Shown piece by piece: positions 6,202 through 28,960 of a stretch of DNA of 64,000 nt (positions are counted from its first letter, which is position 1; every line of letters begins with the position of its first letter). Source of the stretch: an uncultured Rhodospirillaceae bacterium (GTDB lineage: Bacteria > Pseudomonadota > Alphaproteobacteria > UBA9219); the NCBI GenBank assembly GCA_964453225.1, contig CAYVNS010000006.1, positions 9,036 to 73,035 of the forward strand, given 5' to 3'. A program made the translations under genes and the position numbers. The notes beneath the pieces were generated by a model. That model ran no database searches and was not told the DNA's origin. It saw nothing but the letters and a program-made list of their open reading frames with translations.

Positions 6202-8733
6202 TTATGCCGCATCCTCTATTAAACGAATAAACTCTTTGCGCCATTCATTGCTATCAACGACGGCGTACTTAATCGGACGTTGCTTAATTGCTTGTGCAAA
6301 AGTCGCTTGGTCAATCTGCATCGTCTTCGATTTTTGATTAGCCATTGAAAAAACCGCATTTTTATAGGTAGTATCATCGTTGTCTTTCAGGTGAACGCCC
6401 TTTGTTTCGACCACGAAAACCTTGAAGTTATCATCGCCATCATTGTCAGTAGAAAAAACAAAATCAGGGAATATCCTATTCTTTTGCCAACCTTGCAGGC
6501 TATATCCAGTCCTAACGCGATTGCGTAGCCAAAAATAAAGCTGTTTTTGATCTTCTAAAAACCAAGCAACATCACGTTCCAAGCCATCGAAATCATCTTC
6601 AAGCTCAACATCAAACAGGGAGAATTGAAGGGGCTGGCCGCGTTTGTTGGTTAGTACTTTTGTATCCCTAACTTGCCGTGGGGAAAACAGCCGCAGCCTC
6701 GCCTTTTCATCAGCGATAATCGTGAAACGTATTTCATCTTTCGCAAGACTTTCATCAAAAGCTAATTTTGCTAATCGGTCTTTTTCTTTCTGAATATGCT
6801 GCTTGGCCTGTTCCACGATATAGACAAAGCTGCTGGCCACCATGTCGCCACCATGCTTGGCTTGCAGTCCGTCTAAAACCTTCTGTGTGACGGAATTGGC
6901 AACCCACGGATTTGGAATTAAGTCATCGGAGAGCACGCGCGCAAGATAGAATGGGTCTAACTCGCCAACGCCGACATCCATACGCTGCACGTCATGTTGC
7001 CGAATAACGTCGTTTTTCTCGCGCCCAAGCCCCACGGCAAAAGTCTCGCCCGTCGGTTTATATTTGGAAAGCGGCAAAGCAAGCAATTCGGACAAATCTA
7101 AAGCCACCCAGTTGATCTGGGCTTCAATGTCCATCGCGTAGCTAACGGGTCGCCACCGTTTTTTATCTTCGCGCCGCGCAAATAAAGGAAGGAAGGCCGC
7201 GCTGATCGCCTTTTGAAATTTGCCTCTTACCGAAGCCGTAATAGTATTCGGTCTATCGTCTATCGCCCTGTCAATTGCCAGTCTTCCAGCCAAATCGCCC
7301 AAGCCTTCATTTTCAAAGCCGTCCTGAATCTGCTTCAACATCTCGGTTGGCATTTGTTGATAGGAATAGACGTAGCTTTCGTCCAAAGCCTTCACGCCGG
7401 TTTTACGAGCTTGGGGTTGGCGCAAGATGCGCCCCACCAACTGAGTTAGGGCCGTCCTTGCCCCCGCATTGGTCAGGATAGCCAACACATAGGCAAAGGG
7501 ACAATCCCAACCTTCCTGCAAGGCATATTTGGTGATGATATAACGTATCTGGCAATCGCGTGATAACAGGCCGTCATCGTCATCAATATCTTCTAAGTCG
7601 TCTTTATCACTGGACTTAATCGCAACTTCGTCTGGCCGAATGCCCCCGACCTCAATCAAATGCTGTTTGATCTGTTCGGCATGGGTGTAGCGGCCATCAT
7701 CGCGCTGATCTTTACCCGTGCGTTCAACCTGAATAAGCAGAATGGGGCGGATAAAGCGGCCAGATTTTGCCCCATAATCACGGGCTTCTTCTTCAAGCTT
7801 ATTGCGCTTTTCAATGGCGTGCCGCAAGGTATCGCGCCAGTCCCACGCGGTTTCGTTCGTAATATGCAGGTCGAGTTTGAGCATTTCTTCTTGCTCTAAT
7901 GCCCTGCCGCTAACGGTAACGAGTTTGTTGGCGGTGGGCTTAGGTGTCGCGGATAGTTCTAGCACGACACAGGGATTAAAACCGGCAATCGTAGCTTGCG
8001 CCAATTCGCCATAGGCTTTGTGGCCTTCGTCTAGAATGACAAGCGGATTGAGCAAGCGCAGGGTATTGCCTAGCGAGGTTTTAGCCCGCCGTTTCAGAAT
8101 ATCGTCTTTGTGGCCGAAATGATCGAGGTTGGGAATTTTATCCAGCAATGCCTCATGTTCAGCGGTCGCATCGTCCATAGGGAAGAAAGTATCAAAGCCC
8201 CCGCTGTCCTGAAACAGTTTCAGCGTATCTTTGTTCTGTCGGTTGGCCGAAGGCAGCATAAGCAAAAGCACAACCAGATTTTCCTGCACATCGAGCGGGG
8301 AAAAACGATCAGTCTTTTCGATAATTTGCGCCCGTCCACCAGTGACAAGGTCAAGATGTTGGCGATAGGGGTGATCTTTGTCGCGCAAGGCTTTCAGCGT
8401 TTGCTGATAAATCTGTTTGGTCGGCACAACCCACAGTACAAGGCCGGTCTTTAATTGGCGGTAATGCAGATTGACCAAGTCGATCACCTTGATCGCAAGA
8501 AAAGTCTTGCCGCCACCGGTGGGGACTTTCAAACAGAAATTTGGAAGCGGGCGACCAAGCCCATCGGCCTTGCCGTGATATTCACTCAATCTCTCCAGCT
8601 TACGCCAAGCCTGTTTAGGGAAGTCAATTTCAAGGTCGGGGTTTTCGTCGGCCTTCCTTTTCCACACGGCCAACTGTTGCAGGTAGTTTCCGACCTGTTT
8701 AAGAGCATCTTGCTGAAACTGTTTCAGTTCCAT
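6202..8733 (-). CDS. res: Type III restriction-modification system restriction subunit (Res; SF2 helicase plus endonuclease)
   Basis: It has a Walker A motif VPTGGGKTFLA and a DEAH-box motif ILDEGHKAYG. At 843 aa it sits immediately downstream of, and 2 bp from, a Mod-type methyltransferase gene on the same strand. Confidence 0.8.
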   Translation of the reverse strand: MELKQFQQDALKQVGNYLQQLAVWKRKADENPDLEIDFPKQAWRKLERLSEYHGKADGLGRPLPNFCLKVPTGGGKTFLAIKVIDLVNLHYRQLKTGLVLWVVPTKQIYQQTLKALRDKDHPYRQHLDLVTGGRAQIIEKTDRFSPLDVQENLVVLLLMLPSANRQNKDTLKLFQDSGGFDTFFPMDDATAEHEALLDKIPNLDHFGHKDDILKRRAKTSLGNTLRLLNPLVILDEGHKAYGELAQATIAGFNPCVVLELSATPKPTANKLVTVSGRALEQEEMLKLDLHITNETAWDWRDTLRHAIEKRNKLEEEARDYGAKSGRFIRPILLIQVERTGKDQRDDGRYTHAEQIKQHLIEVGGIRPDEVAIKSSDKDDLEDIDDDDGLLSRDCQIRYIITKYALQEGWDCPFAYVLAILTNAGARTALTQLVGRILRQPQARKTGVKALDESYVYSYQQMPTEMLKQIQDGFENEGLGDLAGRLAIDRAIDDRPNTITASVRGKFQKAISAAFLPLFARREDKKRWRPVSYAMDIEAQINWVALDLSELLALPLSKYKPTGETFAVGLGREKNDVIRQHDVQRMDVGVGELDPFYLARVLSDDLIPNPWVANSVTQKVLDGLQAKHGGDMVASSFVYIVEQAKQHIQKEKDRLAKLAFDESLAKDEIRFTIIADEKARLRLFSPRQVRDTKVLTNKRGQPLQFSLFDVELEDDFDGLERDVAWFLEDQKQLYFWLRNRVRTGYSLQGWQKNRIFPDFVFSTDNDGDDNFKVFVVETKGVHLKDNDDTTYKNAVFSMANQKSKTMQIDQATFAQAIKQRPIKYAVVDSNEWRKEFIRLIEDAA

Positions 8734-8735
8734 GC

Positions 8736-10559
8736 TTACGCCCCTGCCTTCGTTTTCTTGTTGCTGTCGGCAAGCTGATAAATTTCATAAGGCAGACGAG
8801 CGAAGTCTATGCCGAAGCGGTCGAGATAATCTGGATCGAGGTATTTTGTCGGTGCGAATATCAAACGCCGCTTGTCGCCGACTTTCCACCTGGGCAATGC
8901 CTCGGCCTGATCGAGTGTCAACGCCGTGTTTTTCAGATATTCAACGTCAGGCTGATAGAACAGATAGACGTGATAGTTCCGACTTTCGCCGATATAATTT
9001 TTCTTGGCGTCCAGTTCCTTTTCATTCCATTCTTCGCCTGTGGCCATAAAGAAAACATAACGTGATAGTTCTTTATATGTGGGCAGATTTTTGCCGTTCA
9101 GAATGGTTTGGATTTCAACCGGCTTGCCAAGTTCAAAATAGCTGAACGTGCCGCCCAAGCCTGTTTTCAAGTCTTCGTCTTTCGCTTTCGGTACACCCTT
9201 AATTACGCGCCTCACCCGTTCCGCCGTAATCGTGTCGGCATAATCAAGCGTTTCGATCAAAATAAATTTGCGATTGCCGACGTCTTTTTTGTTCAACGCA
9301 AGAACGGCATGGGCAGTTGTGCCAGAACCGGCGAAGGAGTCGAGGATAATATCGCTTTGTCTTGAAAAAGCTCGTATCAGCTTAGCCGCAACGTCAACGG
9401 GTTTAGATGTATCAAAATCTATCCCAAGAGAGCTTAATAATGCATCATCACTTGCGCCATAATAAAGCAAAGACGGAATGTTTTCACTCATATTTTCTTT
9501 TAATAAGTATTTTCTTTGGGGCTGAGTTTGTTCATCCGATCCAAAAACTATTAATCCCCTTTTTTGAAGATCTGCCATAGTTTCGGGAGGGTTGCGCCAC
9601 CCCTTCGCGGGCACTGGACAAAGTTTTTTATTTGTTGGATGTTTCAAGGGTTTAAAATAATTATCAGGAGCTTTCTTTTTGTTAGGCCATGCCATAGAAA
9701 CAAGACGATATACCTCACCTTTCTCATCTATGTATTTATACATGGCTTCTCCGCCAGATAGGTTGTCCTGTTTAGATAGCCACTTTTGATAATCAATATT
9801 TACTGTATCAAGCGTGCATTTTCGAAAATAATTCGAATCTTCTTTGAGTTCCAGCACGGCTAGTGCGTCCTTAATTGAAATGGGAATACATTTTTTTCCA
9901 ATTTTTCCGAATAAAGCTTTTGCTTTTGTGATCATTCTTTCAGCATTTTGCTTTGGCGCGACTAATCCATTATGCTTCTTGAAAGTTTGTTTTGATTTTG
10001 CAAAGCAAATAATAGCTTCATGCTGATATGAAATTCCATCACTATCTCCTTTGGGGTTACGTTTATCCCATATAATTTCCCCCAAAAAATTACATTCGTT
10101 AAATATCTCACCTAAGATACTCCTTAAATTGTTGCATTCGTTTTCATCTATATGGATTACTATTGCTCCATCCTCTGCCAGTAAATCCTTCAGCAACCTT
10201 AACCTCGGCCACATCATGCAAAGCCACTTATCGTGCCGCGTGAGGTCTTCCTTATCGACTACTTTGCCAAACCATTCCTTAAACATCGGATCATTGACGT
10301 TATCGTTATAAACCCAACCCTCGTTTCCGGTGTTGTAGGGCGGATCGATATAGATGCACTTGATCTTGCCGTGATGCGTCGGCAGCAAAGCTTTCAACGC
10401 GGCCAGATTGTCGCCGTGGATAATAACATTATCGTGCAGGCTAACTTTGCCGTCTTTGGCCACGACGCTTTTGGCTTTTATCGGCTTCAGCTCATGAAAA
10501 GGCACAACCAAGTGATGGTTTTGAACAAGCTGTTTACCTTTGAACTGCAATGAGGGCAT
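8736..10559 (-). CDS. mod: Type III restriction-modification system DNA methyltransferase (Mod; beta-class N6-adenine/N4-cytosine MTase)
   Basis: The catalytic motif IV IYIDPPYNTG precedes the AdoMet motif I ILDSFAGSGTTAHAV. That is the circularly permuted order typical of Mod subunits. It is 607 aa, and this stretch of the gene is AT-rich. Confidence 0.85.
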   Translation of the reverse strand: MPSLQFKGKQLVQNHHLVVPFHELKPIKAKSVVAKDGKVSLHDNVIIHGDNLAALKALLPTHHGKIKCIYIDPPYNTGNEGWVYNDNVNDPMFKEWFGKVVDKEDLTRHDKWLCMMWPRLRLLKDLLAEDGAIVIHIDENECNNLRSILGEIFNECNFLGEIIWDKRNPKGDSDGISYQHEAIICFAKSKQTFKKHNGLVAPKQNAERMITKAKALFGKIGKKCIPISIKDALAVLELKEDSNYFRKCTLDTVNIDYQKWLSKQDNLSGGEAMYKYIDEKGEVYRLVSMAWPNKKKAPDNYFKPLKHPTNKKLCPVPAKGWRNPPETMADLQKRGLIVFGSDEQTQPQRKYLLKENMSENIPSLLYYGASDDALLSSLGIDFDTSKPVDVAAKLIRAFSRQSDIILDSFAGSGTTAHAVLALNKKDVGNRKFILIETLDYADTITAERVRRVIKGVPKAKDEDLKTGLGGTFSYFELGKPVEIQTILNGKNLPTYKELSRYVFFMATGEEWNEKELDAKKNYIGESRNYHVYLFYQPDVEYLKNTALTLDQAEALPRWKVGDKRRLIFAPTKYLDPDYLDRFGIDFARLPYEIYQLADSNKKTKAGA

Positions 10560-10794
10560 GACCTAAAGGGGGTATGAAGGGAGAATCAATAGTGAACAAA
10601 TTGTTCATAAGCACCTTGCCCCTTACTAACCCCTTTTTCAACAAGCTAGTAGTAACAAAAAGGTCTCTATAGGGTTCAGCAAGGCACAATCCGTCTGTAT
10701 CGGACTTATCCACAAGCAAAATGGGAGCTTTGGCCTATAACCAATTCATATTGTTCAAGCCTCTAAACCATGACCCGTCTGGATGAAAAGAATA

Positions 10795-10826
10795 TTGGAG
10801 CGGGTGAAGGGAATCGAACCCCCGCT
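10795..10826 (-). repeat. Duplicated 3' portion (~26 nt) of the adjacent tRNA-Gly (att-like scar)
   Basis: tggagcgggtgaagggaatcgaaccc is identical to the 3' end of the tRNA at 10876-10901 and diverges afterwards. Confidence 0.6.
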
Positions 10827-10875
10827 CGCGAAGGCGAGCAAATAATAGGGGCAGGAAAGACCTTTAGAAATAAAC

Positions 10876-10949
10876 TGGAGCGGGTGAAGGGAATCGAACC
10901 CTCGTCGTAAGCTTGGGAAGCTTCTGCTCTACCATTGAGCTACACCCGC
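10876..10949 (-). tRNA. tRNA-Gly (anticodon CCC), CCA encoded
   Basis: The reverse complement reads GCGGGTGTAGCTCAATGGTAGAGCAGAAGCTTCCCAAGCTTACGACGAGGGTTCGATTCCCTTCACCCGCTCCA. It has a 7-bp acceptor stem, a D-loop AGCTCAATGGTAGAGC, an anticodon loop TTCCCAA and a T-loop GGTTCGATTCC. Confidence 0.85.
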
Positions 10950-15961: not shown

Positions 15962-18900
15962 TCACGTCCTTATGATCCACCTGTTCAGCATCGCGGCAAT
16001 CTGTTCCTGCTTAAACGGCTTGTTCAAATAATCATCCATGCCCGCATCAAGGCATTTTTCCCGATCGCCTGTCATGGCGTCCGCCGTGAGCGCGACAATA
16101 ATCGTGTGATTTTTTCCGTTGGCCTCTTCCTCCCGGATGCGGCGCGTCGCCTCGAAGCCGTCCATGATCGGCATTTGGCAGTCCATGAAAACAATATCGT
16201 ATTTCGTTTCCCTAATCTTGGCGACGCCCTCCTCGCCGTTGTAGGCCGTATCGATGGATGTGACTTCCATTTTTTCGAGGATTTTCTGCATCAGCATCTG
16301 GTTGACCTTCATATCCTCGACAAGAAGAACGCGCGCGCCCTGGAACGACCCCTTTTGCTGGCGGGCCTCGGCATCGCCGTTTTGAAGCTGCGCGATCATG
16401 CTGCGCGTCAGAAGCCCCCTTTTGTCTTTCTTCTGATAGCCGTCCCACAATATTTTAAAGGCGTCTTGCAGCTGATCGGGGAAAAGAGGCCGTGTCAGCA
16501 AGGCGGCGCGATCCGTGCATTTCAGGATGCGCGTGGCCGTTTGCGGCCCGAAAACGGCGGCTATGACAAACATGACGTTGCGCACTTCGTTCGGTATTTC
16601 CTTCGCATCCATCAGTTCCAGAATTCTTTGGACGCCGATCTTGTCGTCGACGTAGACGAAGTGGAAAGCCGCGCCATCCTGGCTCGCATCTTTCAATTGC
16701 TGAAGAAAATTCTGGAAATCGTCGCAAAAGCTGCCGGCCATTCCCCATGCCTTAAGGTAATCGCCGATTATCTTGCGCTTAATATCGCCATCGCAGAAAA
16801 CAAGCACGCGAAGGCCGCGGATATCGATCGGCGGGACTTTAGATATATCGTTAAGGGGCCTTGGGAGATTGATGTCAAAATGGAAATTGGATCCTTTGCC
16901 GACTTCGCTATCGACCTTAATTTCGCTTTCCATCAGATTGATCAGCAGTTGGCTGATGGCAAGGCCGAGACCCGTGCCGCCAAAGCGTCGCGTCGTGGAT
17001 TCCTCGGCTTGCGAGAACTTGTTGAAAATGTGCGCCAGATGCTCGGAGGCAATGCCGATGCCCGTGTCTTTGACGCTAATGGAAAGCCTTGTGTCGCTTG
17101 CCCCGACATTCCGGCTTCCTATATCGAGGAAAACATGGCCTTTCGGCGTAAATTTAATGGCGTTGCCCACAAGATTAAGGACGACCTGCTTGATGCGCAG
17201 CACATCGCCGATCAAATAGCGCGGAGTCGCCGGATCAATTCGGACAATCAGCTCGATTCCTTTTTCATGCGCGCGCAGAACCAGCATGTCGGTGATTTCC
17301 GCCATCGCCGAATAAAAATTGAACGTCACAAACTCCAGCTTCATGCGGCCGGCTTCGATTTTGGAAAAATCGAGAATATCGTTGATGATCTCCAAAAGGC
17401 CCATGCCGGAGTTGTAGATGATTTCGGCCCAGCTTCGCTGTTCGGCGTCGAGCTTCGTATCCATCAAGAGCCGCGCCATGCCAAGCAGCCCGTTCATCGG
17501 CGTGCGTATTTCGTGGCTCATGTTCGCAAGGAAGTCGCTCTTCGCGGCATTGGCCTGTTCGGCCGCAAGCTGCGCTTTCATCGCTTTCGTTTGCGAAACT
17601 TCGATTTCGCCAATGAACAGCTGCAACTGCAATTCGCGCGCGCTGATTTCCTCGACCTGCTGTTCCAAAAGAGCTTTATTTTTTTCGACTTCAATCTGCT
17701 CCAGCGTTGCTTCCGCGCGGTTGTAGTTAATGCAGTTCCCCGGATGATCGTTGCCCTTTAATATCGCGGTGGCAAAGCGGCGGCAGCTGCCGTAGCCGCA
17801 GGAAAAACAATCGATGTGCCGGCTTTCTTCATCCAGTTTGTGAAGTTTCGTGAAAACCTCGTCGTATTGTTCTTCGCTGAAGCTTTCTTCTTCCGACCGT
17901 TTTCTTTTATCGACGTAGCTGCGAAGGAAATCATCCAGTTTCAGGGTTTTATCGAACTCCTTAAACAGGGAATAGACAACCTTGCCGTCTTCGGTTTTCT
18001 CTTTCTCCTGCAATTTCTGCACCTTCAAGGCGTTGATCTGCGAGTCGATGTCGTCGATGCAGGCGTCCTTGCATGTGCCGGTGCCAAGATTGCATCCATG
18101 CGGGCAATTTAATACATCGAGGAAGAGAGGCAGGCTTTTTCCCTCCCTTATGCGTTCGGAATATTCCGAAAGATAGGTATACGCGTGGTCGACGCCTTCG
18201 ATCTGGCGCACCCATGCATGGCCTTTAGTATGATATTCAAGATTTTCCCTTAGGCCTCCCGGGCGGCAAAAAACCATCCCGATTCCGCAGCCGACATCGT
18301 CGAAATCCTTTTCAAGCTGGTTATCGAGGCGAATATTATGGGCCGCCATATACGCGGCCAGCTTTTTGAACGTCACGTTGTAGGAAACGATATTGCCCGT
18401 GTCCCGGAGTTCCTGCGTTTTTCCGAGACACGGTGAGAGAAAGGCTATTTTGTCGTTCACGCCGACATAATTTCTCATGTAGATGGCCGAACAAAGCGCG
18501 GGGCTGTGAACCGGGGCGAGATTCTCTATGAGCTCGGTCTTGTGCTTTTCAATAAAGGAAACGATCGGCGGGCACGGCTGCGCGATGATCGAGGCCAGGC
18601 GCTTGTCATCGACCACTTTCAGATAAGCCCACGTCGTAATATCCGCGCCGAAGGAAACGTCGTAAACGAGGTTGACGCCGAGGCTTTTCAATAACCCGAA
18701 AAGTTTTTTGTAATTGGCGACGTTGTATCGAATGGACGGCGCCGCAATAACCGAAATTTTTTCGCCTTTGGCAAGATCGGAAAAAAAGGCTTCTGTGTCG
18801 TCGATGTAGTCGCGGGCGCCGTGCGTGCAAACCGCTATGCACTGTCCGCAATTAATGCAGCGGTCGGGATGAATGCGAACCTTGTTCTTTCCGTTTACAA

Positions 18901-18994
18901 CGTAGGCCACATTCGCGTCCTCGACAGGGCAGCGGGCAATGCATTTGTTGCAACCGATGCATTTGCTTTCATCGAGAACGATAATGTCGGGCAT
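15962..18994 (-). CDS. Hybrid sensor histidine kinase with N-terminal 2x[4Fe-4S] ferredoxin and [FeFe]-hydrogenase-like (H-cluster domain-like) sensor, HisKA, HATPase_c, C-terminal receiver
   Basis: CIGCNKCIARCP and CINCGQCIAVC are ferredoxin motifs. QPCPP, LSPCLGKTQE and LNCPHGCNLGTG correspond to the three [FeFe]-hydrogenase signature motifs TSCCP, MPCxxKxxE and ExMxCxxGCxxG, with reduced cysteine content. The H-box is ANMSHEIRTPMNG, the G-box is [10 protein letters not shown], and the receiver has DIVFMDCQMPIMDG and a T/K pair. Confidence 0.8.
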   Translation of the reverse strand: MPDIIVLDESKCIGCNKCIARCPVEDANVAYVVNGKNKVRIHPDRCINCGQCIAVCTHGARDYIDDTEAFFSDLAKGEKISVIAAPSIRYNVANYKKLFGLLKSLGVNLVYDVSFGADITTWAYLKVVDDKRLASIIAQPCPPIVSFIEKHKTELIENLAPVHSPALCSAIYMRNYVGVNDKIAFLSPCLGKTQELRDTGNIVSYNVTFKKLAAYMAAHNIRLDNQLEKDFDDVGCGIGMVFCRPGGLRENLEYHTKGHAWVRQIEGVDHAYTYLSEYSERIREGKSLPLFLDVLNCPHGCNLGTGTCKDACIDDIDSQINALKVQKLQEKEKTEDGKVVYSLFKEFDKTLKLDDFLRSYVDKRKRSEEESFSEEQYDEVFTKLHKLDEESRHIDCFSCGYGSCRRFATAILKGNDHPGNCINYNRAEATLEQIEVEKNKALLEQQVEEISARELQLQLFIGEIEVSQTKAMKAQLAAEQANAAKSDFLANMSHEIRTPMNGLLGMARLLMDTKLDAEQRSWAEIIYNSGMGLLEIINDILDFSKIEAGRMKLEFVTFNFYSAMAEITDMLVLRAHEKGIELIVRIDPATPRYLIGDVLRIKQVVLNLVGNAIKFTPKGHVFLDIGSRNVGASDTRLSISVKDTGIGIASEHLAHIFNKFSQAEESTTRRFGGTGLGLAISQLLINLMESEIKVDSEVGKGSNFHFDINLPRPLNDISKVPPIDIRGLRVLVFCDGDIKRKIIGDYLKAWGMAGSFCDDFQNFLQQLKDASQDGAAFHFVYVDDKIGVQRILELMDAKEIPNEVRNVMFVIAAVFGPQTATRILKCTDRAALLTRPLFPDQLQDAFKILWDGYQKKDKRGLLTRSMIAQLQNGDAEARQQKGSFQGARVLLVEDMKVNQMLMQKILEKMEVTSIDTAYNGEEGVAKIRETKYDIVFMDCQMPIMDGFEATRRIREEEANGKNHTIIVALTADAMTGDREKCLDAGMDDYLNKPFKQEQIAAMLNRWIIRT

Positions 18995-19171: not shown

Positions 19172-19504
19172 TTATTTTCTCTCGTTAAGCGCTTTTTTAA
19201 CCTTTTCCAGCTCGGCCTCCATGTCGGCAAGCATCGCTTTTTTTGCATCGGCGCCTGATTGAAACTCATCCTGCGCCTTTTTGCATATTTCGCCAAGCGG
19301 CGCAGCGCCAAGATTAAAGCTTATGCCCTTAAAAGCGTGCGCATGATCCCGCCATGCTTTTTCGTTGCCGTTAGCCAGCGCTTCATGAAGGCCGTTGACG
19401 CATTCAACGGACGAAGAAAGGAAAAGCTGAAAAAGCTCGGCCTCCATGGCGGAATCGCCCCCCGTAATGTCCTGAAGATTGCTAAAATTTACTGATGGAT
19501 CCAC
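19172..19504 (-). CDS. Hpt (histidine phosphotransfer) domain protein
   Basis: A 110-aa helical protein with a conserved His in HAHAFKGISFNLGA. It lies between the response regulator and the hybrid kinase. Confidence 0.7.
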   Translation of the reverse strand: MDPSVNFSNLQDITGGDSAMEAELFQLFLSSSVECVNGLHEALANGNEKAWRDHAHAFKGISFNLGAAPLGEICKKAQDEFQSGADAKKAMLADMEAELEKVKKALNERK

Positions 19505-20459
19505 GAACGCCTCCCTTGTGGCTGATCACATAGCGCTCGATGTAATCCAGCACCTGTTTCTTGGTGTACGGCTTCATGATAAAGCCGTCGACATTGTTCT
19601 GCCGCGCAACGCCAAGTTCGCCTTCATATGTGTTAGCGGTGACGATAATCACCTGCGCCATCGGGTCCAATTCCTTGATCGCACGAGTCAGCGAGTGGCC
19701 GCTGCCGTCGATCAAGCCCAGATCGATGAAAGCGATATCATGGGCTTTCTTGAGAAAAAGATCCCACGCCTCCCTGATGGTTTGAACCGCATCGACGGAA
19801 GGCGCCTCGCGCGTGCTGGATCGCGCGCCGCGCAGGATTTCGCAAAGCAGCCTTTGCGAAAAAATTTGATCTTCGACTACAAGAATTTGCAACTGCTTGC
19901 GAAACGGGCGCTGATCCCTGATTTCTATGTAGGAGGTCACCTGCTCCGGCGTAACGGAAAAGATGCTTTTAACGCCTTTTTCTTTTTCCGTATCGTCATC
20001 GTCATCCAGATCGAACGGGCTGGCGTCTTGCGGCAAGGGGCCTTTGATTTTCGGCTTTAACGCATTCGCCTGCGAGGATTTCTCAATTTCCGCTTCAAGA
20101 GCCGTTTTAAAATCAGCGCCGCGAGCCTTCGGATCCATGTAGGAAATAACGGCCAAAGGCTCGGCTGCCATGCCCGCTTGCACCAGGTTCGCAAGCACGA
20201 CTCCGCGTATATGCTTGTAAATCGCTTTTTGCTCCCCGCTCCAGGCAATATATATATTCTTGTTATCTGAAAAATAAATCTGCGCCTCTTTTGCTTCCTG
20301 AATGGCCGGCGTAACAGCAAGAAGGAAAGCTTCGTTCGTCATCGTCTTCAGGTTGTTGCGACGAATGCAGGCTACGCCCCATGTCGAATCGCCTTTCTTT
20401 GCGATTTCATCGACCAAAGAAATAAGGGGAATTAGGCTATCATATTCAACGGCATCCAT
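19482..20459 (-). CDS. Response regulator: uncharacterised ~160-aa N-terminal domain plus C-terminal receiver, no recognisable DNA-binding output
   Basis: The receiver is LQILVVEDQ...DIAFIDLGLIDGSG...IIVTAN...KPY. The N-terminal domain is homologous to that of the regulator at 46511-47287. Confidence 0.7.
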   Translation of the reverse strand: MDAVEYDSLIPLISLVDEIAKKGDSTWGVACIRRNNLKTMTNEAFLLAVTPAIQEAKEAQIYFSDNKNIYIAWSGEQKAIYKHIRGVVLANLVQAGMAAEPLAVISYMDPKARGADFKTALEAEIEKSSQANALKPKIKGPLPQDASPFDLDDDDDTEKEKGVKSIFSVTPEQVTSYIEIRDQRPFRKQLQILVVEDQIFSQRLLCEILRGARSSTREAPSVDAVQTIREAWDLFLKKAHDIAFIDLGLIDGSGHSLTRAIKELDPMAQVIIVTANTYEGELGVARQNNVDGFIMKPYTKKQVLDYIERYVISHKGGVRGSISKF

Positions 20460-20925: not shown

Positions 20926-21019
20926 GGAGACGTGGCCGAGTGGCTGAAGGCGGCGGTTTGCTAAACCGTTATAGGTTTGTAAAGGCCTATCGAGGGTTCG
21001 AATCCCTCCGTCTCCGCCA
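20926..21019 (+). tRNA. tRNA-Ser (anticodon GCU), CCA encoded
   Basis: GGAGACGTGGCCGAGTGGCTGAAGGCGGCGGTTTGCTAAACCGTT followed by a long variable arm, then GAGGGTTCGAATCCCTCCGTCTCCGCCA. The anticodon loop TTGCTAA gives GCT. Confidence 0.9.
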
Positions 21020-21131: not shown

Positions 21132-21164
21132 AACCTTTAATAAGATGGTTCCTTATTAAAGGTT
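21132..21164. promoter_or_regulatory. Perfect 13-bp inverted repeat with 7-nt spacer immediately upstream of the fic start
   Basis: aacctttaataag atggttc cttattaaaggtt. Confidence 0.4.
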
Positions 21165-21171
21165 GGGCTTT

Positions 21172-22350
21172 ATGGAAAAAGCATCAAACAAGAACAGACT
21201 CGGCTCCTACGTTTCTCGGTCTAGCGCCGGAGAAATGTACAAGGCCTTCGTACCCCCTGCTCTGCCGCCTGATCCGCCGCTTGATATGGATAGACTATAC
21301 AAACCACTCGACAAGGCCATGAAGGCTTTGGGCGAACTGGATGCTTTGGCAAAGCTTCTTCCGGATATAGGCCTTTTCCTTTACATGTACGTTCGTAAAG
21401 AAGCCCTCCTATCTTCGCAGATAGAAGGAACTCAGTCGTCTTTATCCGATCTTCTGCTTTTTGAAAATCAGGAAAAGACAAATGCACCGGCGGACGATGT
21501 CGAGGAAGTTTCAAATTATATCGCCGCGCTTAATCATGGACTGAAGCGGATGAGGGGAGGTTTCCCTTTATCGACCCGCCTTATACGCGAAATGCACGCT
21601 ATTTTATTACGCGGCGGGCGCGGTTCCACTAAAGCGCCTGGAGAGTTTCGCCGCTCGCAGAACTGGATTGGCGGCACCAGGCCCGGTAAGGCTCGTTATG
21701 TCCCCGCTCCACCTGAAATGGTTGGCGACCTTATGAGCGATTTGGAAAAATTTATCTACACCGACAAACAAAGCCTGCCGACTTTGATTAAGGCAGCGCT
21801 CGTTCATGTGCAGTTTGAAACGATCCATCCTTTTCTCGACGGCAATGGACGTCTGGGGCGGCTGCTCATTACCTTGTTGCTCTGCGCTAACGAGACGCTG
21901 GTTCAGCCGATTTTGTACCTCAGCCTGTATTTTAAAGAACATCGGCAGATTTATTACGATCTTCTGCAAGACGTCCGATTGAAAGGCGATTGGGAAGAAT
22001 GGTGTGAATTCTTCCTTGATGGAGTGCAGGAAACGGCAACCAAAGGCTCGGCTGACGCGAAAAAAATTATTGATCTATTAGAGCGCGATCGCAAACGTAT
22101 CGGCGTGATCGGCAAGGCATCAAAGAGTGCATTAAAAGTTCATGAGTATCTGCTGAAGAAACCGTTTCTGTCGATCACCAAGGCATCAAAGACGCTTAAG
22201 CTATCTGTTCCGACCACAACGAATGCCGTGCAGAAATTAGTGAAGATCGGGCTCCTGAAAGAACTAACCGGCGGCGCACGAAACAGGCTTTTCGCATATA
22301 CCGATTATCTGGCCATTCTAACTGTTGGCACCGGGCCGCTGAAGAAATAA
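21172..22350 (+). CDS. fic: Fic family protein (AMPylation/Fido domain)
   Basis: The Fic motif HPFLDGNGRLGRLL is present. The track ORF starts at an upstream TTG, but the ATG at 21172 (MEKASNKN) is more likely. Confidence 0.85.
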   Translation: MEKASNKNRLGSYVSRSSAGEMYKAFVPPALPPDPPLDMDRLYKPLDKAMKALGELDALAKLLPDIGLFLYMYVRKEALLSSQIEGTQSSLSDLLLFENQEKTNAPADDVEEVSNYIAALNHGLKRMRGGFPLSTRLIREMHAILLRGGRGSTKAPGEFRRSQNWIGGTRPGKARYVPAPPEMVGDLMSDLEKFIYTDKQSLPTLIKAALVHVQFETIHPFLDGNGRLGRLLITLLLCANETLVQPILYLSLYFKEHRQIYYDLLQDVRLKGDWEEWCEFFLDGVQETATKGSADAKKIIDLLERDRKRIGVIGKASKSALKVHEYLLKKPFLSITKASKTLKLSVPTTTNAVQKLVKIGLLKELTGGARNRLFAYTDYLAILTVGTGPLKK

Positions 22351-22361
22351 AGCAGCTAAAA

Positions 22362-23768
22362 TCACCCAACAAGTTGCTCAGCGTCGTTCTCCATTCTTTC
22401 ATAAAAACTGCCGAGGTCATTTCCCAAATGGAACTGGCTATTGCAACGATTTCTTGGAAGAAACAAGCCATATAAATCGGATTCCGTCATATACTCGTCA
22501 AACGAATAAGGAAGAGGAAACAGTTTGAATTTCGACATATAGTCTTGAACCGCCGCTTTGATAGTCTCCGGCGATGCATTTTTAAATATCAGCCGATACA
22601 TCATTTCGGCCACAAAATCGAAGTCTTTTTCCTTTAAACCTCTTCTTGTCGCCGACTGGACGCCGAGCCGGAATCCATAAATATTGTCTTCTTCCGACAG
22701 CACGACATTGTTTGTTCTAATGCCGCCCTTATTCAAAAATTCTCTTGTTACAAAATCGGTGCGCGCCCAATCGCCTATTGCCACATGCACTTGATTTGTT
22801 TGCGTATAGCCGAATACATCCCCTCTTACGTTAAAGCCTCTTTCGGCAAGAACCTTCGCCAAACGCTTGGCATTAAGCTTGGTTTGCAGGGCATAAGAAG
22901 CGCCAAAATATTTTATCTCTAAAAGCGTGACGTAGAAGTTGATTAAAAGTTCCGAATGGCAATTGCTTTGCAGTTTTGGGAAAACACACGGAGAGATTTT
23001 GTCGCACAATGCCCTTGAATCCGCATATCCAACATACCCCTTCTGTGGCCCCGGGATGGTTTTGTGCGTGCTTCCGTGGATAATATCGGCCCCCACATCA
23101 ATCGGATTGGGTAATGTGCCGGTTGCAATAAAAAGCCCGTCATGACTTGCGTCGTAGGACAAAACGACGTCCTTTGGAAGCGCTCGCCTTATCTCCTTAA
23201 TGTCTTGCATCCGTAATTTATTGGATTGGTCAAGCATCACTACCCGAATTTCAGGATGCTTTTTAATCGTCTCAGACAAAGCTTCCGCATCGATAAGAAG
23301 GCTATCTTTCTTGACTTTAAAATAATAACTATTAACTCCTAATTGTTCCGCCATCCCATCCAGTGCGAAATGCCCTCCGTCGCTTCTGGAAAAATGAACA
23401 ATGCCATCTCCTCTCCCGCACAAACCGAAGAGAACCGCATGTTCGCACCCTTCTCCGCCGTTGGGCCTCCAATCGAAATATTTTGTACCGAAGATTTCGT
23501 TTCCCAGAGAGATAAGCTCTGCATTAAAACGATCTACAGCCTCGCTTCGCGGATAGAAAGTCTTGAATTCATAGTTATCGACAGGAGGCTGGAAATCGTA
23601 AAAGCTTGAGCTAACGAAGTTATGTGCGCTGCGGACGTGAAAACTTGGATAATTCTCGTTCGCGGTCAGAGAGATGCAATTTTCATGATGCTGCGCATCT
23701 TCAAATAGCCTGTTGGCAATGTTCCTGACCAAGGAACGATAACCTGACTGAATATCACTATTATCCAT
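22362..23768 (-). CDS. Serine hydroxymethyltransferase-fold PLP-dependent enzyme, strongly divergent (candidate aldolase/transaldolase)
   Basis: LTANENY resembles SHMT LIASEN. DGGHFALDG resembles GGHLTHG. HGSTHKTIPGPQKGY resembles TTTHKTLRGPRGG with the PLP lysine. The 468 aa protein diverges elsewhere. This is the last gene of the AT-rich operon. Confidence 0.65.
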   Translation of the reverse strand: MDNSDIQSGYRSLVRNIANRLFEDAQHHENCISLTANENYPSFHVRSAHNFVSSSFYDFQPPVDNYEFKTFYPRSEAVDRFNAELISLGNEIFGTKYFDWRPNGGEGCEHAVLFGLCGRGDGIVHFSRSDGGHFALDGMAEQLGVNSYYFKVKKDSLLIDAEALSETIKKHPEIRVVMLDQSNKLRMQDIKEIRRALPKDVVLSYDASHDGLFIATGTLPNPIDVGADIIHGSTHKTIPGPQKGYVGYADSRALCDKISPCVFPKLQSNCHSELLINFYVTLLEIKYFGASYALQTKLNAKRLAKVLAERGFNVRGDVFGYTQTNQVHVAIGDWARTDFVTREFLNKGGIRTNNVVLSEEDNIYGFRLGVQSATRRGLKEKDFDFVAEMMYRLIFKNASPETIKAAVQDYMSKFKLFPLPYSFDEYMTESDLYGLFLPRNRCNSQFHLGNDLGSFYERMENDAEQLVG

Positions 23769-23849
23769 TTTTCGTCAATCCCGTTTGGGGCAATGCCGGC
23801 GCACGACTCTTTTGCGCCGGCAGCAGCATCTATCCATCACAAGGCGGCT

Positions 23850-24905
23850 TTAAAGCGCACTACTTTGCTTTTTTGTCCAAAATTTTTTCAAGACCTCATC
23901 CATCGTCTCAATATCGATGTCTAAATATTTGATGAGGTCGAGGGTTGCCGGAGGTAATGATTTAACCTCCTCGCTGACCAGAAGCTCTTTGGCTTCCTGA
24001 ATTGAAATTTCCCCGAACTTCAGAAGGTTGCTGACTTGGACATTCTTTCCGCAATATCCATGCTTTTTGTATTTAAAATATTCCAGTATGGGGTTGATCT
24101 TGCAGTCGGCGTGGAAAAACTGTCCTTTCGGATGCCTCCAATCGTACAATTCCTTAAGTTTCTTGTTGACCGCATGATAATCGCTATCGACGTCATAAAA
24201 ATCTGGCAAATCGACGGTCAGAAACTTGGGCCTCCAATTCTTAATATGAAGGAAATCAGCATTCCGGTTCAAATCTTCTTTCGTGATGTTCTGCTGTTTC
24301 GCAAAAGACTCAATCTTCTTATTAAACTCTTCCTCGGATTTTGCATAATATCCGCTGTAATTGCTGTCGATATAATTGTAATCGAATTTCGAATTGATGC
24401 CGCGCAGATATATGGGCACATCGTATAACTTGGCTGCCATTGCAACGACATACTCATGGCCCTGATGGCATGGAGAGCAAAATTCACCGTAATTCACCAA
24501 GAAACCCCTAGTTATCTTTTTATTGAAGGCCTCATTAATCTTGAACGTTATGAAGTCAACTCCTTGAACTGAAGAACACCGGTCCATATTGAACTTGGCC
24601 TCATCGGTAACAAATCCCGTGTCGTAATAGACGGCCAACGGCACAAGTCCCAGATGGTTCTTGACATAGTCGAGCATGAACCCGCTGTCTCTTCCTCCCG
24701 TAATTCCAATAATACAATCGTATTTTGAAGTGTTTTCCGCGGCGACTTCTCTTACTTGTTCCAAGCTCATGGAGAGATTGTCGTTCGACAGCATCTGTCC
24801 CGGACTTTTGGTCACGTCGATATCCGATGAACAATAATTGCATCCCTCTTGCGTCGCATTAATGACATCGCCGGGCATTAAACATTTCTTACAATTGCCG
24901 CACAT
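23850..24905 (-). CDS. PP-loop ATP pyrophosphatase-family amidotransferase with N-terminal Cys4 ribbon (N-acetyl sugar amidotransferase-like)
   Basis: CGNCKKC...CNYC at the N-terminus, then the PP-loop IGITGGRDSGFMLDY. The ~350 aa architecture is as in WbpG/WbuX-type amidotransferases. Confidence 0.6.
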   Translation of the reverse strand: MCGNCKKCLMPGDVINATQEGCNYCSSDIDVTKSPGQMLSNDNLSMSLEQVREVAAENTSKYDCIIGITGGRDSGFMLDYVKNHLGLVPLAVYYDTGFVTDEAKFNMDRCSSVQGVDFITFKINEAFNKKITRGFLVNYGEFCSPCHQGHEYVVAMAAKLYDVPIYLRGINSKFDYNYIDSNYSGYYAKSEEEFNKKIESFAKQQNITKEDLNRNADFLHIKNWRPKFLTVDLPDFYDVDSDYHAVNKKLKELYDWRHPKGQFFHADCKINPILEYFKYKKHGYCGKNVQVSNLLKFGEISIQEAKELLVSEEVKSLPPATLDLIKYLDIDIETMDEVLKKFWTKKQSSAL

Positions 24906-24914
24906 TCCTTCCTC

Positions 24915-25808
24915 CTATGTCTGAGTGAGTATTGTTTCGGGTTTTTGCGTGCGCGGGCCCTTTTCCGCTTGGAGACGAAAATCGCTCGCAGGATAAACCC
25001 CCATGACCGCGACTTCCTCGGCGTAGAAGGAAAGCTCCTCTATCGCCAGTTTCATAAGTTCTTCATCGGGATGTCCTTCGACGTCGATCCAGAATTGCGC
25101 TACGCTGAAGCCGCCATCTGCAAGATAACTTTCAAGGCGCGTAATATTGATTCCGTTGGTGGCGAATCCGCCTAACGTTTTGTAAAGTGCGGCAGGAACA
25201 TTGCGTACGCGATAGATCAATGTCGTAATACATGGCCCGTCGCTGATTTCCGGACGCAAAGGCGTGGGCGATAAAATCAGGCATCGCGTCGTATTGCCGC
25301 GTACATTGGCAATGTCGGCCGCGAGGCTTTGTAAACCATAAAGTTCTCCAGCCAACTTTGAAGCAATGGCGGCAACCCTCACATCGCCCAACTTCGCCAC
25401 TTCCTCAGCCGATCCGGCCGTATCCGGGCGAACGATGGGGTCGATATTATGCGCTTTCAGCCATTGGCTGCACTGCGGCAAAGCATGGACGTGGCTACGC
25501 ACCTCCTTGATGTCGGCCAATGTCGCATTCGGCAGTGCAAGCAAATGATGCTCGACAGACTGGTAATGCTCACCGATGATATAAAGACCGCTTTTGGGCA
25601 GAAGATAGTGAACGACAGCAACTCGACCGGCAACTGAATTTTCAACAGGGATCATGGCCTGATCCGCCCGCCCTTCATGCACGGCCGTGACGGCTTCCCC
25701 GACGGTCGTACAAGAAACGGTTTCGTAGTCCGGCAAGGCCTCACGGCAAGCCAAATCGGAGTACGCGCCCGGAACACCCTCAAATGCAATGCGTTTAGAC
25801 ATTATCAT
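24915..25808 (-). CDS. pheA: Prephenate dehydratase with C-terminal ACT domain
   Basis: RIAFEGVPGAYSDLA...IPVENSVAGRV and the TRL and ESRP-like regions, at 297 aa. Confidence 0.8.
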   Translation of the reverse strand: MIMSKRIAFEGVPGAYSDLACREALPDYETVSCTTVGEAVTAVHEGRADQAMIPVENSVAGRVAVVHYLLPKSGLYIIGEHYQSVEHHLLALPNATLADIKEVRSHVHALPQCSQWLKAHNIDPIVRPDTAGSAEEVAKLGDVRVAAIASKLAGELYGLQSLAADIANVRGNTTRCLILSPTPLRPEISDGPCITTLIYRVRNVPAALYKTLGGFATNGINITRLESYLADGGFSVAQFWIDVEGHPDEELMKLAIEELSFYAEEVAVMGVYPASDFRLQAEKGPRTQKPETILTQT

Positions 25809-25862
25809 ACCTCTCTTCTTGGGTTGAACACTTCACCATACGGGCAACAATTTATGGAGAAG

Positions 25863-27635
25863 TCAACCACAAGCAATTCCTTTTCCCCTTGGTTTTGCGT
25901 TTGGCAGAGGAAGGGAGGGTCCATTCGCCATGTATTGCTGATCGAATTCTTTCTTTGCTTGACCGAGCTGATGAACAAGCTCTGCGGCGCTTTCCCGATC
26001 CATGTACGGATTAAGGATATAATATCTTAGCGCAGTAACGCCTTCTCCGATCGGAGCATAGAAAGCGGCGGCAGTCTTCCCTATGGAAAAGCCATTTTCG
26101 CCTTCAACGTGATTGGCTTGCAGCCAATCATAGAATTCGGAATTGTACTCGTCTGTTTCCGACAATGCTGCCGCATCGAGCAACTCCCGCTCATGCTCTT
26201 TACAAGGCTCCGTTCCGGGGGGGAAGGCGCGCACATATACGTCGGAGCCGAAAGACTGCCGGTTTACGACATAAAGTCCCGTTTCAGAAGATTTTTCATT
26301 TATGCCGTCTCTGATGAGCTCAGCCATTTCCAACGCATGACCGAGCAGGACTTGGTACCCTTCTTTGCCGAAAGCTTTTGCCGTGATCCATGTCCCCACC
26401 ATGTTGGCAGCCGAACGCGAAGTCTCCAACGAATACTTTCCAGGATGATAGTCGTTCGGATCGAAAAATAACGGCGTCATCATCTGGCTTTCGCGTCCAA
26501 GATTGGAAAGATCTTGCTTATTCCGCGCGATCACGACGCTTGAAACATAGGGAACATATCCGGTCTTGTGAAAATCCAATCCGATGCTGTCGGCATAGCG
26601 GAAAGTTTTGACAAGCTCGGTCGTACGCTGAATCTTGCCAAGAACTTTTTCGCTGAAACCCAGCGGATTTTTTGCAAAGTCATAGTCTGCAAAGTGCAGG
26701 TACGCCCATCCGATAACGCTGTCGCTATGAATATGAGGAGAATAATCCAGTGCGAATTCCTCGACCAAACGATCGCGCATCTCAGCCATATCCTTGAAAT
26801 TGTCTATGCCCATATTCGAGGTAGTGCCGCCAACTCCGACAATGCAAGCAATCCTCTTTCCCGCCTTGATTTGCTCCCTGCAAATTCTTTCCATATGGGC
26901 AAGATCCGTTGTTTGATCCATGTTGGATCGCGCCATCAGATAGTTATTGCGACCGAGGCCAAGCCAATTTGTGGAGTTTTGCTGAGCATAATGAGCGGGC
27001 ACTGAACCGACGATAACAAGGTTTCCTTTGCTTCCTTCAAAAATGAAATCGGGATCGGCCTTGGATATCCCCATTTTAAAGCCATACAAAATCGTAGCGG
27101 TTCCTCCGAATGTAAACAGCCCCCCTGCCTGCGCCGGATCGTAACCGGCCATTTCTGAATATACCTTTGAGATCGATATCTCGGCATTCAAAGCATTGGC
27201 TGCATATTCGCTCGTGACGGCATTCGGCATATACAAAGACGTCACTAAATGACCGGCAAAGTATGTCCACGACGGAACCGGGATCACGTTCTTGTTCATC
27301 TTCACATGGCTTGCTTTAACAATCCCTTCAAGCTCATTGGGAAGAGAGGAAATCGCCGCGAAAGGATTGACGGTAAGATTTTCGGGCAAGCGCGCAACCC
27401 TAACGACTTCTTCGAAAGGCAAAGAAGGGCTGGTTCGCCGATAGGTTGGCCCCGAACCCTCGTTTTCCATCGTGACATCGACGGCCTCGCGCAACAGAGA
27501 AATCATTTTTTCTTTGTTGCTCCCGTCGGGCGCGAGGAAATAATTGTTTCTAAGGCACGTCAACAATTCTTCGTATTTGCGCGCTTGCGGCGGTGCTTCC
27601 AGAAAGTCGCCATCGAAAATCTGACCCACACTCAT
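25863..27635 (-). CDS. Group II pyridoxal-dependent amino-acid decarboxylase (aromatic/tyrosine-decarboxylase-like)
   Basis: DFHKTGYVPYVSSVV matches the DPHKMGYVPY PLP-lysine motif of bacterial tyrosine decarboxylases. The 590 aa size is similar. Confidence 0.65.
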   Translation of the reverse strand: MSVGQIFDGDFLEAPPQARKYEELLTCLRNNYFLAPDGSNKEKMISLLREAVDVTMENEGSGPTYRRTSPSLPFEEVVRVARLPENLTVNPFAAISSLPNELEGIVKASHVKMNKNVIPVPSWTYFAGHLVTSLYMPNAVTSEYAANALNAEISISKVYSEMAGYDPAQAGGLFTFGGTATILYGFKMGISKADPDFIFEGSKGNLVIVGSVPAHYAQQNSTNWLGLGRNNYLMARSNMDQTTDLAHMERICREQIKAGKRIACIVGVGGTTSNMGIDNFKDMAEMRDRLVEEFALDYSPHIHSDSVIGWAYLHFADYDFAKNPLGFSEKVLGKIQRTTELVKTFRYADSIGLDFHKTGYVPYVSSVVIARNKQDLSNLGRESQMMTPLFFDPNDYHPGKYSLETSRSAANMVGTWITAKAFGKEGYQVLLGHALEMAELIRDGINEKSSETGLYVVNRQSFGSDVYVRAFPPGTEPCKEHERELLDAAALSETDEYNSEFYDWLQANHVEGENGFSIGKTAAAFYAPIGEGVTALRYYILNPYMDRESAAELVHQLGQAKKEFDQQYMANGPSLPLPNAKPRGKGIACG

Positions 27636-28739: not shown

Positions 28740-28960
28740 CCTTAAAGGCGATTGGGAAGAATGGTGTGAATTCTTTCTCGATGGAGTCATGGAAACGGCG
28801 ACCCAAGGCTCGGCTGATGCAAAAAGAATTATCAATCTGATAGAGCGCGATCGCAAACGTATCAATGTAATCGGCAAGGCATCGAAGAGCGCCTTAAAAG
28901 TTCATGCGTATCTGCTGAAGAAACCGTTCCTGTCGATCAGCAGGAACCAAAGACGCTTAA
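28740..28960 (+). pseudogene. Decayed copy of the fic 3' end (direct repeat of 21971-22200)
   Basis: LKGDWEEWCEFFLDGVMETATQGSADAKRIINLIERDRKRINVIGKASKSALKVHAYLLKKPFLSIS matches the Fic C-terminus and then is disrupted by a small deletion. There is no start codon or upstream part. Confidence 0.6.

Follow-up and report, generated by a model that had tools for sequence, protein, structure and literature searches.

A hybrid histidine kinase of an uncultured alphaproteobacterium with a probable sensory-type [FeFe] hydrogenase as its input module

Results

Domain organization of the sensor kinase

We analyzed a 64,000-nucleotide stretch of contig CAYVNS010000006.1 (positions 9,036 to 73,035 of the forward strand) from assembly GCA_964453225.1 of an uncultured Rhodospirillaceae bacterium, hereafter called the window. 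An open reading frame (ORF) on its minus strand, starting with ATG, encodes a hybrid sensor histidine kinase (HK) of 1010 residues with a hydrogenase-type input, and genes for a stand-alone Hpt protein and a response regulator (RR) lie immediately upstream on the same strand (Table 1). The kinase gene is real, since an identical protein (P0121) exists in a public collection and also on a Logan contig, and orthologs with 82% and 77% identity are on record. An earlier note on this locus, made by a model from the sequence without database searches, had read the protein as a ferredoxin domain, an H-domain, a coiled coil, HisKA, HATPase and a receiver, an architecture that Pfam and the sequence bear out; the ORF lies at exactly the coordinates given there. 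The note had also described two CxxCxxCxxxCP ferredoxin motifs; both are there, in a Fer4 dicluster that Pfam places at residues 5-60, but the second ends in C-T rather than C-P. The proposed Pfam check for PF02906 (Fe_hyd_lg_C) gave a significant match to residues 79-304 (E 7.4e-25; 88.4 bits, gathering score 22.1) that spans profile positions 2-244 of 245.

Two features had been overlooked: a fourth cluster site in a small domain that follows the H-domain, and a degenerate receiver at residues ~727-850. Pfam has no match for the latter segment, in which Ala replaces the conserved Thr/Ser and Arg the conserved Lys; relative P0128 has two Response_reg matches. The segment probably represents a pseudo-receiver, placed after the HATPase domain and before the true receiver. 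Neither Pfam nor the sequence revealed a PAS domain after the C-terminal cluster, and the cluster domain runs into the coiled coil and HisKA. The output half has what is expected of hybrid phosphorelay kinases of the BarA/TorS/ArcB kind by Pfam and motifs, namely a phospho-His, the kinase boxes, a receiver Asp and a separate neighboring Hpt. Its scores are below the NCBIfam equivalog cutoffs for named kinases (419 bits vs. 890 for BarA, the best, and 386 vs. 676 for TorS), and it therefore appears to be a generic hybrid kinase and not the ortholog of a named one.

Table 1. The kinase gene, its domains and the two genes upstream of it (window coordinates)
Feature	Coordinates	Strand	Basis
Hybrid sensor histidine kinase gene, hydrogenase-type input	15962..18994	-	ORF, translation, Pfam, P0121
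F-domain, aa 1-70; two [4Fe-4S] ferredoxin motifs, C12/C15/C18/C22 and C46/C49/C52/C56	18785..18994	-	Pfam Fer4_10/Fer4_7; aligned to CpI FS4A/FS4B cysteines
H-domain, aa 75-310; H-cluster ligands C141, C189, C297, C301	18065..18772	-	
Post-H-domain region, aa 311-390; helices and hairpin, family-invariant R358, Y360, K386	17825..18064	-	AlphaFold2 secondary structure with high pLDDT; alignment columns
C-terminal accessory cluster domain, aa 391-425; C396-x2-C399-x4-C404-x16-C421	17720..17824	-	Pfam FeS PF04060 (residues 394-422)
Signaling helix/coiled coil, aa 426-483, from cluster domain to DHp histidine	17546..17719	-	AlphaFold2 helix from residue 422; sequence
HisKA (DHp), aa 484-549; phospho-acceptor H494 in HEIRTP	17348..17545	-	Pfam E 1.5e-21; motif
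HATPase_c, aa 596-711; N, G1, F and G2 boxes present	16862..17209	-	Pfam E 2e-26; sequence
Probable degenerate (pseudo-)receiver, aa ~727-850	16445..16816	-	Receiver-like sequence pattern
Receiver, aa 889-1003; acidic pocket, phospho-Asp (FMDCQMP), Thr and Lys intact	15986..16330	-	Pfam Response_reg E 1.2e-28; sequence
Stand-alone Hpt protein, 110 aa; HAFKG motif	19172..19504	-	Pfam Hpt E 2e-10; sequence
Response regulator, 325 aa; N-terminal alpha/beta domain 1-133, acidic linker, receiver 192-307 (D197, D246, T274, K296)	19482..20459	-	Pfam receiver; family alignment; AlphaFold2 pLDDT 88

Homology to [FeFe] hydrogenases and conservation of the active site

The earlier note had recognized three H-cluster signatures in the N-terminal part of the kinase. 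A phmmer search of residues 1-435 against the whole set of PDB sequences returned only [FeFe] hydrogenases as top matches (E ~1e-17). An AlphaFold2 (AF2) model of residues 1-435, made from an alignment with 44 relatives, has a predicted local distance difference test score (pLDDT) of 93.4 and a predicted template modeling score (pTM) of 0.91, and the best 50 Foldseek matches in the PDB are all [FeFe] hydrogenases (E ~1e-20). Because all three approaches point to [FeFe] hydrogenases, the three motifs reflect genuine homology and not chance, although the first of them had been placed off by one residue. Of the two outcomes named in the note that would have undone its proposal, a failure to predict an Fe-hydrogenase fold is at odds with this confident model and its uniform matches, and a loss of the cluster cysteines in orthologs is at odds with the residue comparison that follows.

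For this comparison 200 relatives were aligned with CpI, whose numbering sequence was verified against the PDB. In the corrected register TSCCP of CpI is matched by A-Q-P-C-P at 138-142, with Cys141 equivalent to CpI C300, a ligand of [4Fe-4S]H, and Pro140 at the position of the proton-relay cysteine C299. Aligning the cysteines to CpI, as the note had suggested, matched every H-cluster ligand: C141, C189, C297 and the bridging C301 (CpI C300, C355, C499 and C503) are invariant among the relatives, and so are K192 (CpI K358), E195 (E361), A85-P86 (A230-P231) and P165 (P324). The residues that hold the [2Fe] site (the bridging Cys301, K192, A85-P86 and P165) are thus kept throughout the family. 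Two substitutions are equally invariant, S187 for CpI M353 and L295 for M497, and D293 is the equivalent of CpI E495. The C299 position is Pro in 178 relatives, Ala in 15 and Ser in seven. The proton pathway of group A enzymes has been lost; in the window protein E279 is missing, and E282, R286 and S319 are replaced by Ala, Val and Ala. In the F-domain, the second set of cysteines (C46-C56) is invariant in 200/200 and the first (C12-C22) is Cys in 195, the other five being gapped at the N-terminus. Of 201 relatives with the H-cluster motifs, 200 also have the Cx2Cx4Cx16C motif of the C-terminal domain (C396, C399, C404, C421) at its exact spacing.

In the M2e and M2f subclasses of putative sensory [FeFe] hydrogenases, a two-cluster domain at the N-terminus precedes the H-domain, a Cx2Cx4Cx16C motif lies at the C-terminus, and both C299 and the whole proton pathway lack conservation (PMC8163306, Land et al.). 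In place of Met353 they have a small or hydroxyl residue, which is Ser or Thr in M2e (PMC8163306, PMC10055695). The module described here agrees with them in its 2x[4Fe-4S] N-terminus, the absence of a conserved C299 and proton pathway, the Ser at M353 and the C-terminal motif, and it lacks what marks catalytic group A and B enzymes, a TSCCP motif with C299 and the E279/S319/E282/R286 pathway. As no PAS domain, the mark of M2f, follows, it resembles M2e rather than M2f. The best explanation of these data is that the module is a complete sensory-type [FeFe] hydrogenase, in which the H-domain is accompanied by two relay [4Fe-4S] clusters and by a fourth [4Fe-4S] cluster on the small C-terminal domain. 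Judging by the conserved ligands and pocket, the H-domain most likely carries a genuine H-cluster, that is, [4Fe-4S]H together with a [2Fe]H subcluster delivered by HydEFG.

Distribution, fusion partners and linker of the module

Fusions of sensory hydrogenase-like proteins to signaling domains had been called rare in the earlier note, which proved incorrect. A species-level survey of GTDB, with one representative genome per species, places the sensor module at 597 loci or more (the total is a lower bound). Anaerobic Firmicutes, Sporomusa, Desulfosporosinus and Clostridium among them, account for most of these, and further loci are in Spirochaetales, Calditrichales and Melainabacteria. HK-fused forms alone fill dozens of clusters at 90% identity: a search with the full-length protein retrieved Fer4/Fe_hyd_lg_C/FeS/HisKA/HATPase/REC proteins, with or without Hpt, PAS and GAF, from metagenome-assembled genomes (MAGs) labeled Alphaproteobacteria, Bdellovibrionales, Lachnospiraceae, Oscillospiraceae, Gastranaerophilales and Deltaproteobacteria.

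The sensor module itself is closest, at 55-66% identity, to proteins of ~637 residues that end in a methyl-accepting chemotaxis protein (MCP) domain. At the 74 nearest genomic loci, the outputs are MCPsignal (53), GGDEF (11), HisKA plus HATPase (4) and SpoIIE (2), and sigma54 activators with the same input module have been reported from Clostridiales (PMC6615313). Among the relatives surveyed, the module is always joined to signaling outputs. In a neighbor-joining tree (a rough distance tree that carries no support values), HK-fused modules alternate with MCP-fused ones in at least eight blocks, and the window protein belongs to an HK clade of 14 members that lies within MCP forms. A conserved input that is combined with many transmitters, with HK and MCP forms interleaved, is the behavior of a sensor domain.

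Some arrangements at these loci are recorded here as observations in their own right. The GGDEF fusions are in Oscillospiraceae and Selenomonadaceae (L061, L064, L066, L068, L070, L071, L074, L075, L078, L081 and one more). Tandem paralogs occur at L010:8979-12221, L047:9935-13174 and L037:1334-5174; in Sporomusa a stand-alone M2e-like hydrogenase-type gene of 384 aa comes directly after an MCP-fused sensor gene, and a Ruminiclostridium contig has two full tandem copies.

The segment between the last cluster Cys and the phospho-His is restricted in length. In 58 direct fusions (proteins P0121-P0205) it measures 27, 31, 34, 38, 42, 45, 48, 52 or 73 aa, and all but two of them have lengths of 7n+3 or 7n+6. 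The linker of the window protein, 73 aa, is the longest of the set and equals 38 plus five heptads. In the AF2 model a helix begins right after the last cluster Cys and continues as a predicted coiled coil to H494. This heptad constraint points to rigid helical coupling of the C-terminal cluster domain to the DHp domain.

Maturation genes beside relatives of the kinase

P0127, an HK-fused relative that is 50% identical to the window kinase, is encoded next to genes related to H-cluster maturation. After a gap of 81 nt, its gene is followed on the same strand by one for aspartate ammonia-lyase (NF008909, 543 bits), which in turn overlaps by 4 nt a gene for HydF (TIGR03918, 514 bits vs. a cutoff of 326). 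Within the 23 kb examined, no hydrogenase-type gene other than that of the sensor kinase is present. Ammonia-lyases show a strong association with hyd operons and provide the nitrogen of the dithiomethylamine bridge (PMC11736057). At this locus the maturation genes appear to have been kept next to the sensor. The MAG that encodes P0127 appears to come from the same uncultured lineage as the window, judging by the MAG labels of relatives of the kinase and of the pyruvate phosphate dikinase encoded in the window. Among MCP-fused relatives, two have HydE (555 bits) and HydF encoded 6-8 kb downstream, and a group A6 hydrogenase is encoded at a distance of 8 kb from another. The P0127-type arrangement was seen at L082:10001-15686 and also at L083, with no catalytic hydrogenase within 10 kb.

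The Hpt protein, the response regulator and neighboring genes

The earlier note had placed the kinase in an operon with an Hpt protein and a response regulator. The three genes are indeed adjacent and on the same strand, and the 82% ortholog shares the RR-Hpt-HK order. However, co-transcription of the kinase with the other two is unproven, because a gap of 177 nt separates the Hpt and kinase genes and a promoter and terminator scan around the cluster gave no significant call and did no better than on shuffled sequences.

The receiver of the response regulator is intact, and the protein is one of a distinct family of regulators ~290-330 aa long, for which 22 representatives reach E<1e-30. Its residues 1-133 have no Pfam or NCBIfam match; the AF2 model and the alignment give a beta-alpha-beta-alpha-hairpin-alpha-beta-alpha order, with a conserved DGDIxIxWxG hairpin that includes W73 and G75. 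With hhalign, this N-terminal domain had a weak, topologically sensible match to a GGDEF alignment (P 0.02, probability 2%) and nothing against the protein's own receiver, so that a GGDEF-like relationship is only hinted at. A second regulator of the same layout (N-terminal part and C-terminal receiver) is encoded at 46511-47287, beside a Cache-HAMP hybrid kinase at 47524-49869.

The genes that flank the cluster encode a phosphatase, a cytidylyltransferase, a heparinase-like protein and Fic, and none of them points to a regulon. A tRNA-Ser(GCT) gene (20926-21019) lies between the response regulator gene and the divergent gene for a Fic_N-Fic-winged helix-turn-helix protein (21163-22350).

Elsewhere in the window, an ORF of 1156 aa (686-4156) and the downstream ORFs at 4544-5359 and 5390-6076 have no Pfam match at E<=0.001. 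The region 6202-10949 encodes a ResIII-type helicase (843 aa) and an N6/N4 DNA methylase (607 aa) that look like a type III restriction-modification pair; a tRNA-Gly(CCC) gene (10876-10949) lies next to the pair, and the local GC content is 0.44-0.48 vs. ~0.52 for the window. On the minus strand, 22362-27635 holds genes for a divergent serine hydroxymethyltransferase-fold protein dependent on pyridoxal phosphate (PLP; only 81 bits), a 351-aa protein without a family, prephenate dehydratase and a 590-aa protein that in part matches a PLP decarboxylase, and may be a small amino-acid-derived biosynthetic cluster. At 28957-31918, the gene for a trehalose-6-phosphate synthase with an N-terminal extension of 255 aa overlaps the start of a trehalose-phosphatase gene. 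The pyruvate phosphate dikinase of the window has 79-86% identity to MAG proteins labeled Alphaproteobacteria (some of them Bdellovibrionales) and ~75% to those of Azospirillaceae/Rhodospirillales, which places the host among uncultured alphaproteobacteria.

Discussion

Relationship to known sensory hydrogenases

The window protein is very likely a hydrogenase-type sensor kinase, and we regard a soluble cytoplasmic hybrid histidine kinase with a complete sensory-type input (HydS-like, of M2e type) as the best explanation of its sequence and predicted fold. Its active site is M2e-like, its sequence neighborhood C2-like and its output C1-like; the comparisons with TamHydS, TmHydS and the HydDB classes on which these terms depend are made with published descriptions.

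TamHydS of Thermoanaerobacter mathranii, an M2e protein also assigned to 'group D', is similar to the window module in having 2x[4Fe-4S], an H-domain, the Cx2Cx4Cx16C motif and no PAS domain, and in its lack of a conserved C299 and of the group A proton pathway, its Ser at M353 and its Leu at M497. An alternative proton path proposed for TamHydS (S249/E252/D265/E289) may correspond to E250/E253/E266/D293 here, as mapped by spacing only. The two proteins also differ. TamHydS has Ala137 where the window protein has Pro140, and the equivalent of its E289 is an invariant Asp in the window family. TamHydS stands alone, with a neighboring 'histidine kinase-like ATPase' gene as its partner, whereas the kinase described here is fused to its sensor through a coiled coil; the TamHydS host is a Firmicute and the window host an alphaproteobacterium. 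TmHydS of Thermotoga maritima (M2f, group C) resembles the window protein in its four [4Fe-4S] clusters plus H-cluster (predicted in the window protein) and in the replacement of C299. It is a slow-turnover enzyme and presumed regulator. In contrast to the window protein, with Ser and Leu at M353 and M497 and a direct coiled-coil link to the kinase in place of a PAS domain, it has Gly and Ser at these positions and a C-terminal PAS domain.

HydDB distinguishes [FeFe] classes C1 'histidine kinase-linked', C2 'chemotactic' and C3 'phosphatase-linked', all of them putative and of 'undetermined role' (PMC5037454). Like the window protein, group C members are hydrogenase-like sensors coupled to HKs, MCPs or phosphatases. 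Within the sensory group of HydDB, C299 is replaced by Ala in 43%, by Pro in ~10% and by Ser in ~10% and kept as Cys in 17%, and M353 is Gly, Ser or Thr (PMC10055695), so the Pro and Ser variants reported here are within the recorded diversity of the group. HydDB bases the classes on clustering of sequences and on linkage of genes. The window protein has a sensor that falls among MCP-fused (C2-like) forms and an output that is an HK (C1-like). The GGDEF-fused form is not among the HydDB [FeFe] subtypes, yet it occurs at the nearest loci in the number given above. HK-linked sensory [FeFe] hydrogenases are a kind already catalogued, to which the window protein adds a member. The [NiFe] group 2b systems HoxBC-HoxJ and HupUV-HupT follow the same logic, with a low-activity hydrogenase that reports H2 to a histidine kinase and a two-component pathway (PMC5037454). 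They have an unrelated metal site and fold, their sensor and kinase are separate subunits, and they control hydrogenase genes via HoxA/HupR.

Proposed function and alternatives

In the earlier note, the hydrogenase-like module had been proposed to drive a phosphorelay as its sensor, and H2 was listed among the candidate signals. The present data support both points. It seems reasonably likely that the protein is a cytoplasmic H2 sensor which contains an H-cluster and drives a His-Asp-His-Asp phosphorelay. H2 would be bound and slowly split at an H-cluster without a fast proton-exit pathway, and the persisting reduced states would report the H2 level relative to the redox poise of the cell. A redox or conformational change in the H-domain and the C-terminal cluster domain could then pass along the heptad-phased helix to the DHp domain and switch autophosphorylation at H494 in one direction or the other. 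From H494 the phosphoryl group would move to the Asp of the receiver (889-1003), the His of the 110-aa Hpt protein and finally Asp246 of the 325-aa response regulator, whose N-terminal domain would act through a protein-protein or ligand interaction rather than through DNA binding.

Nar1/NARFL (CIAO3) has the Fe_hyd_lg_C fold and retains the cubane ligands, and Nar1-type proteins act in Fe-S assembly in eukaryotes and lack a [2Fe] site, HydEFG and signaling domains. The fold can thus persist without the [2Fe] site, as would be required if the window protein were an Fe-S-only redox sensor, in which an H-domain with only a [4Fe-4S] cluster would report ferredoxin or redox state, or O2 or NO damage to four cubanes; the two relay clusters could exchange electrons with ferredoxin. 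The earlier note had leaned this way, on the ground that the first motif retains only one cysteine. However, the cysteine that was lost is the proton-relay C299 and no ligand. Taken as a whole, the note made a correct observation but interpreted it partly wrongly. Sensory [FeFe] hydrogenases that lack C299 and the proton pathway still bind a full H-cluster and react with H2 (PMC8163306, PMC10407848), and the same substitutions are found in TamHydS and TmHydS, which bind it (PMC8163306, PMC10407848, PMC10055695). The absence of the relay cysteine and of the pathway, which would suit an Fe-S-only protein, is therefore better read as a mark of the sensory branch of true hydrogenases. Invariance of the residues around the [2Fe] site, and the concentration of the relatives in anaerobes that make [FeFe] hydrogenases, also argue against such a sensor. 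The aspA-hydF pair directly beside the HK-fused relative P0127, with no other hydrogenase-type gene in the surrounding stretch, argues against a Nar1-like role, and the architecture of the protein is that of bacterial HydS. We set the Nar1-like interpretation aside as not supported, on the motif register, the residue conservation and this maturase neighborhood, and we judge a sensor with Fe-S clusters alone to be unlikely.

Several results weigh against an H-cluster-based H2 sensor and should be set beside this conclusion. We found no hydE, hydF, hydG or second hydrogenase in the 64-kb window, either by Pfam on its ~50 ORFs or by phmmer and hmmsearch with HydE, HydF and H-domain seeds, a result that an Fe-S-only protein would also explain. 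No genes of H2 metabolism flank the cluster. M497L in CpI impairs integration of [2Fe]H (PMC10055695), again as expected of a domain without [2Fe]; however, TamHydS has Leu at this position naturally and still incorporates [2Fe]H (PMC8163306). The C-terminal cluster in TamHydS undergoes no reduction by H2 (PMC13104023), and the literature searched contains no experimental test of directly fused HK, MCP or GGDEF forms. Lastly, the hydrogenase models of NCBIfam score far under their cutoffs for catalytic groups A and B (TIGR02512, 108.9 bits vs. 405.95; TIGR04105, 132.1 vs. 450). These low scores also count against the idea that a metabolically active hydrogenase became fused to a kinase by chance and that H2 turnover is its main role. 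The full cluster complement and the electron-relay F-domain would fit such an enzyme, but the whole group A proton pathway is missing, the module is always found with signaling outputs, and characterized sensory relatives have a specific activity of only ~1e-1 μmol H2 per mg per min (PMC10407848). We consider this role very improbable.

If an H-cluster is present, it might instead sense CO, O2 or NO. H-clusters bind CO and react with O2, the host is an alphaproteobacterium, and many members of this class meet O2; TamHydS is unusually CO-tolerant and forms a distinct O2-derived state (PMC8163306). However, the low CO affinity of characterized relatives argues against CO (PMC8163306, PMC10407848), and the reaction of O2 with the H-cluster is generally destructive and ill-suited to a reversible sensor. 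TamHydS combines high H2 affinity with slow turnover (PMC8163306, PMC10407848), and its reduced states are stabilized, Hred by H2 itself (PMC8163306). A signal other than H2 therefore seems improbable to us.

Significance

Taken more broadly, the Fer4/H-domain/Cx2Cx4Cx16C unit may be a general-purpose cytoplasmic H2-sensing input that has repeatedly been joined in evolution to kinases, chemoreceptors, diguanylate cyclases, PP2C phosphatases and sigma54 activators through a helix of heptad phase, although we offer this generalization tentatively and would not put it at even chances. If it is true, the window protein would be a single-polypeptide transducer of H2 into phosphorylation, its ATP-dependent autophosphorylation would provide the first direct functional read-out of signal transmission by a sensory [FeFe] hydrogenase, and aspA-hydF would be retained in some genomes to serve a sensor and not an enzyme. 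The mechanism of signaling by these proteins is still open (PMC13104023), and the fusion to a canonical kinase, with its own Hpt protein and response regulator encoded adjacently, offers an assayable output in the form of H2-dependent autophosphorylation and phosphotransfer. The window protein is thus not a system of a new kind but a good candidate for experiments, and its classification is unchanged. The wide spread of the module, its interchangeable outputs, the heptad-constrained linker and the lone sensor beside aspA-hydF support the view that H2 is a common signal among anaerobes, including uncultured alphaproteobacteria.

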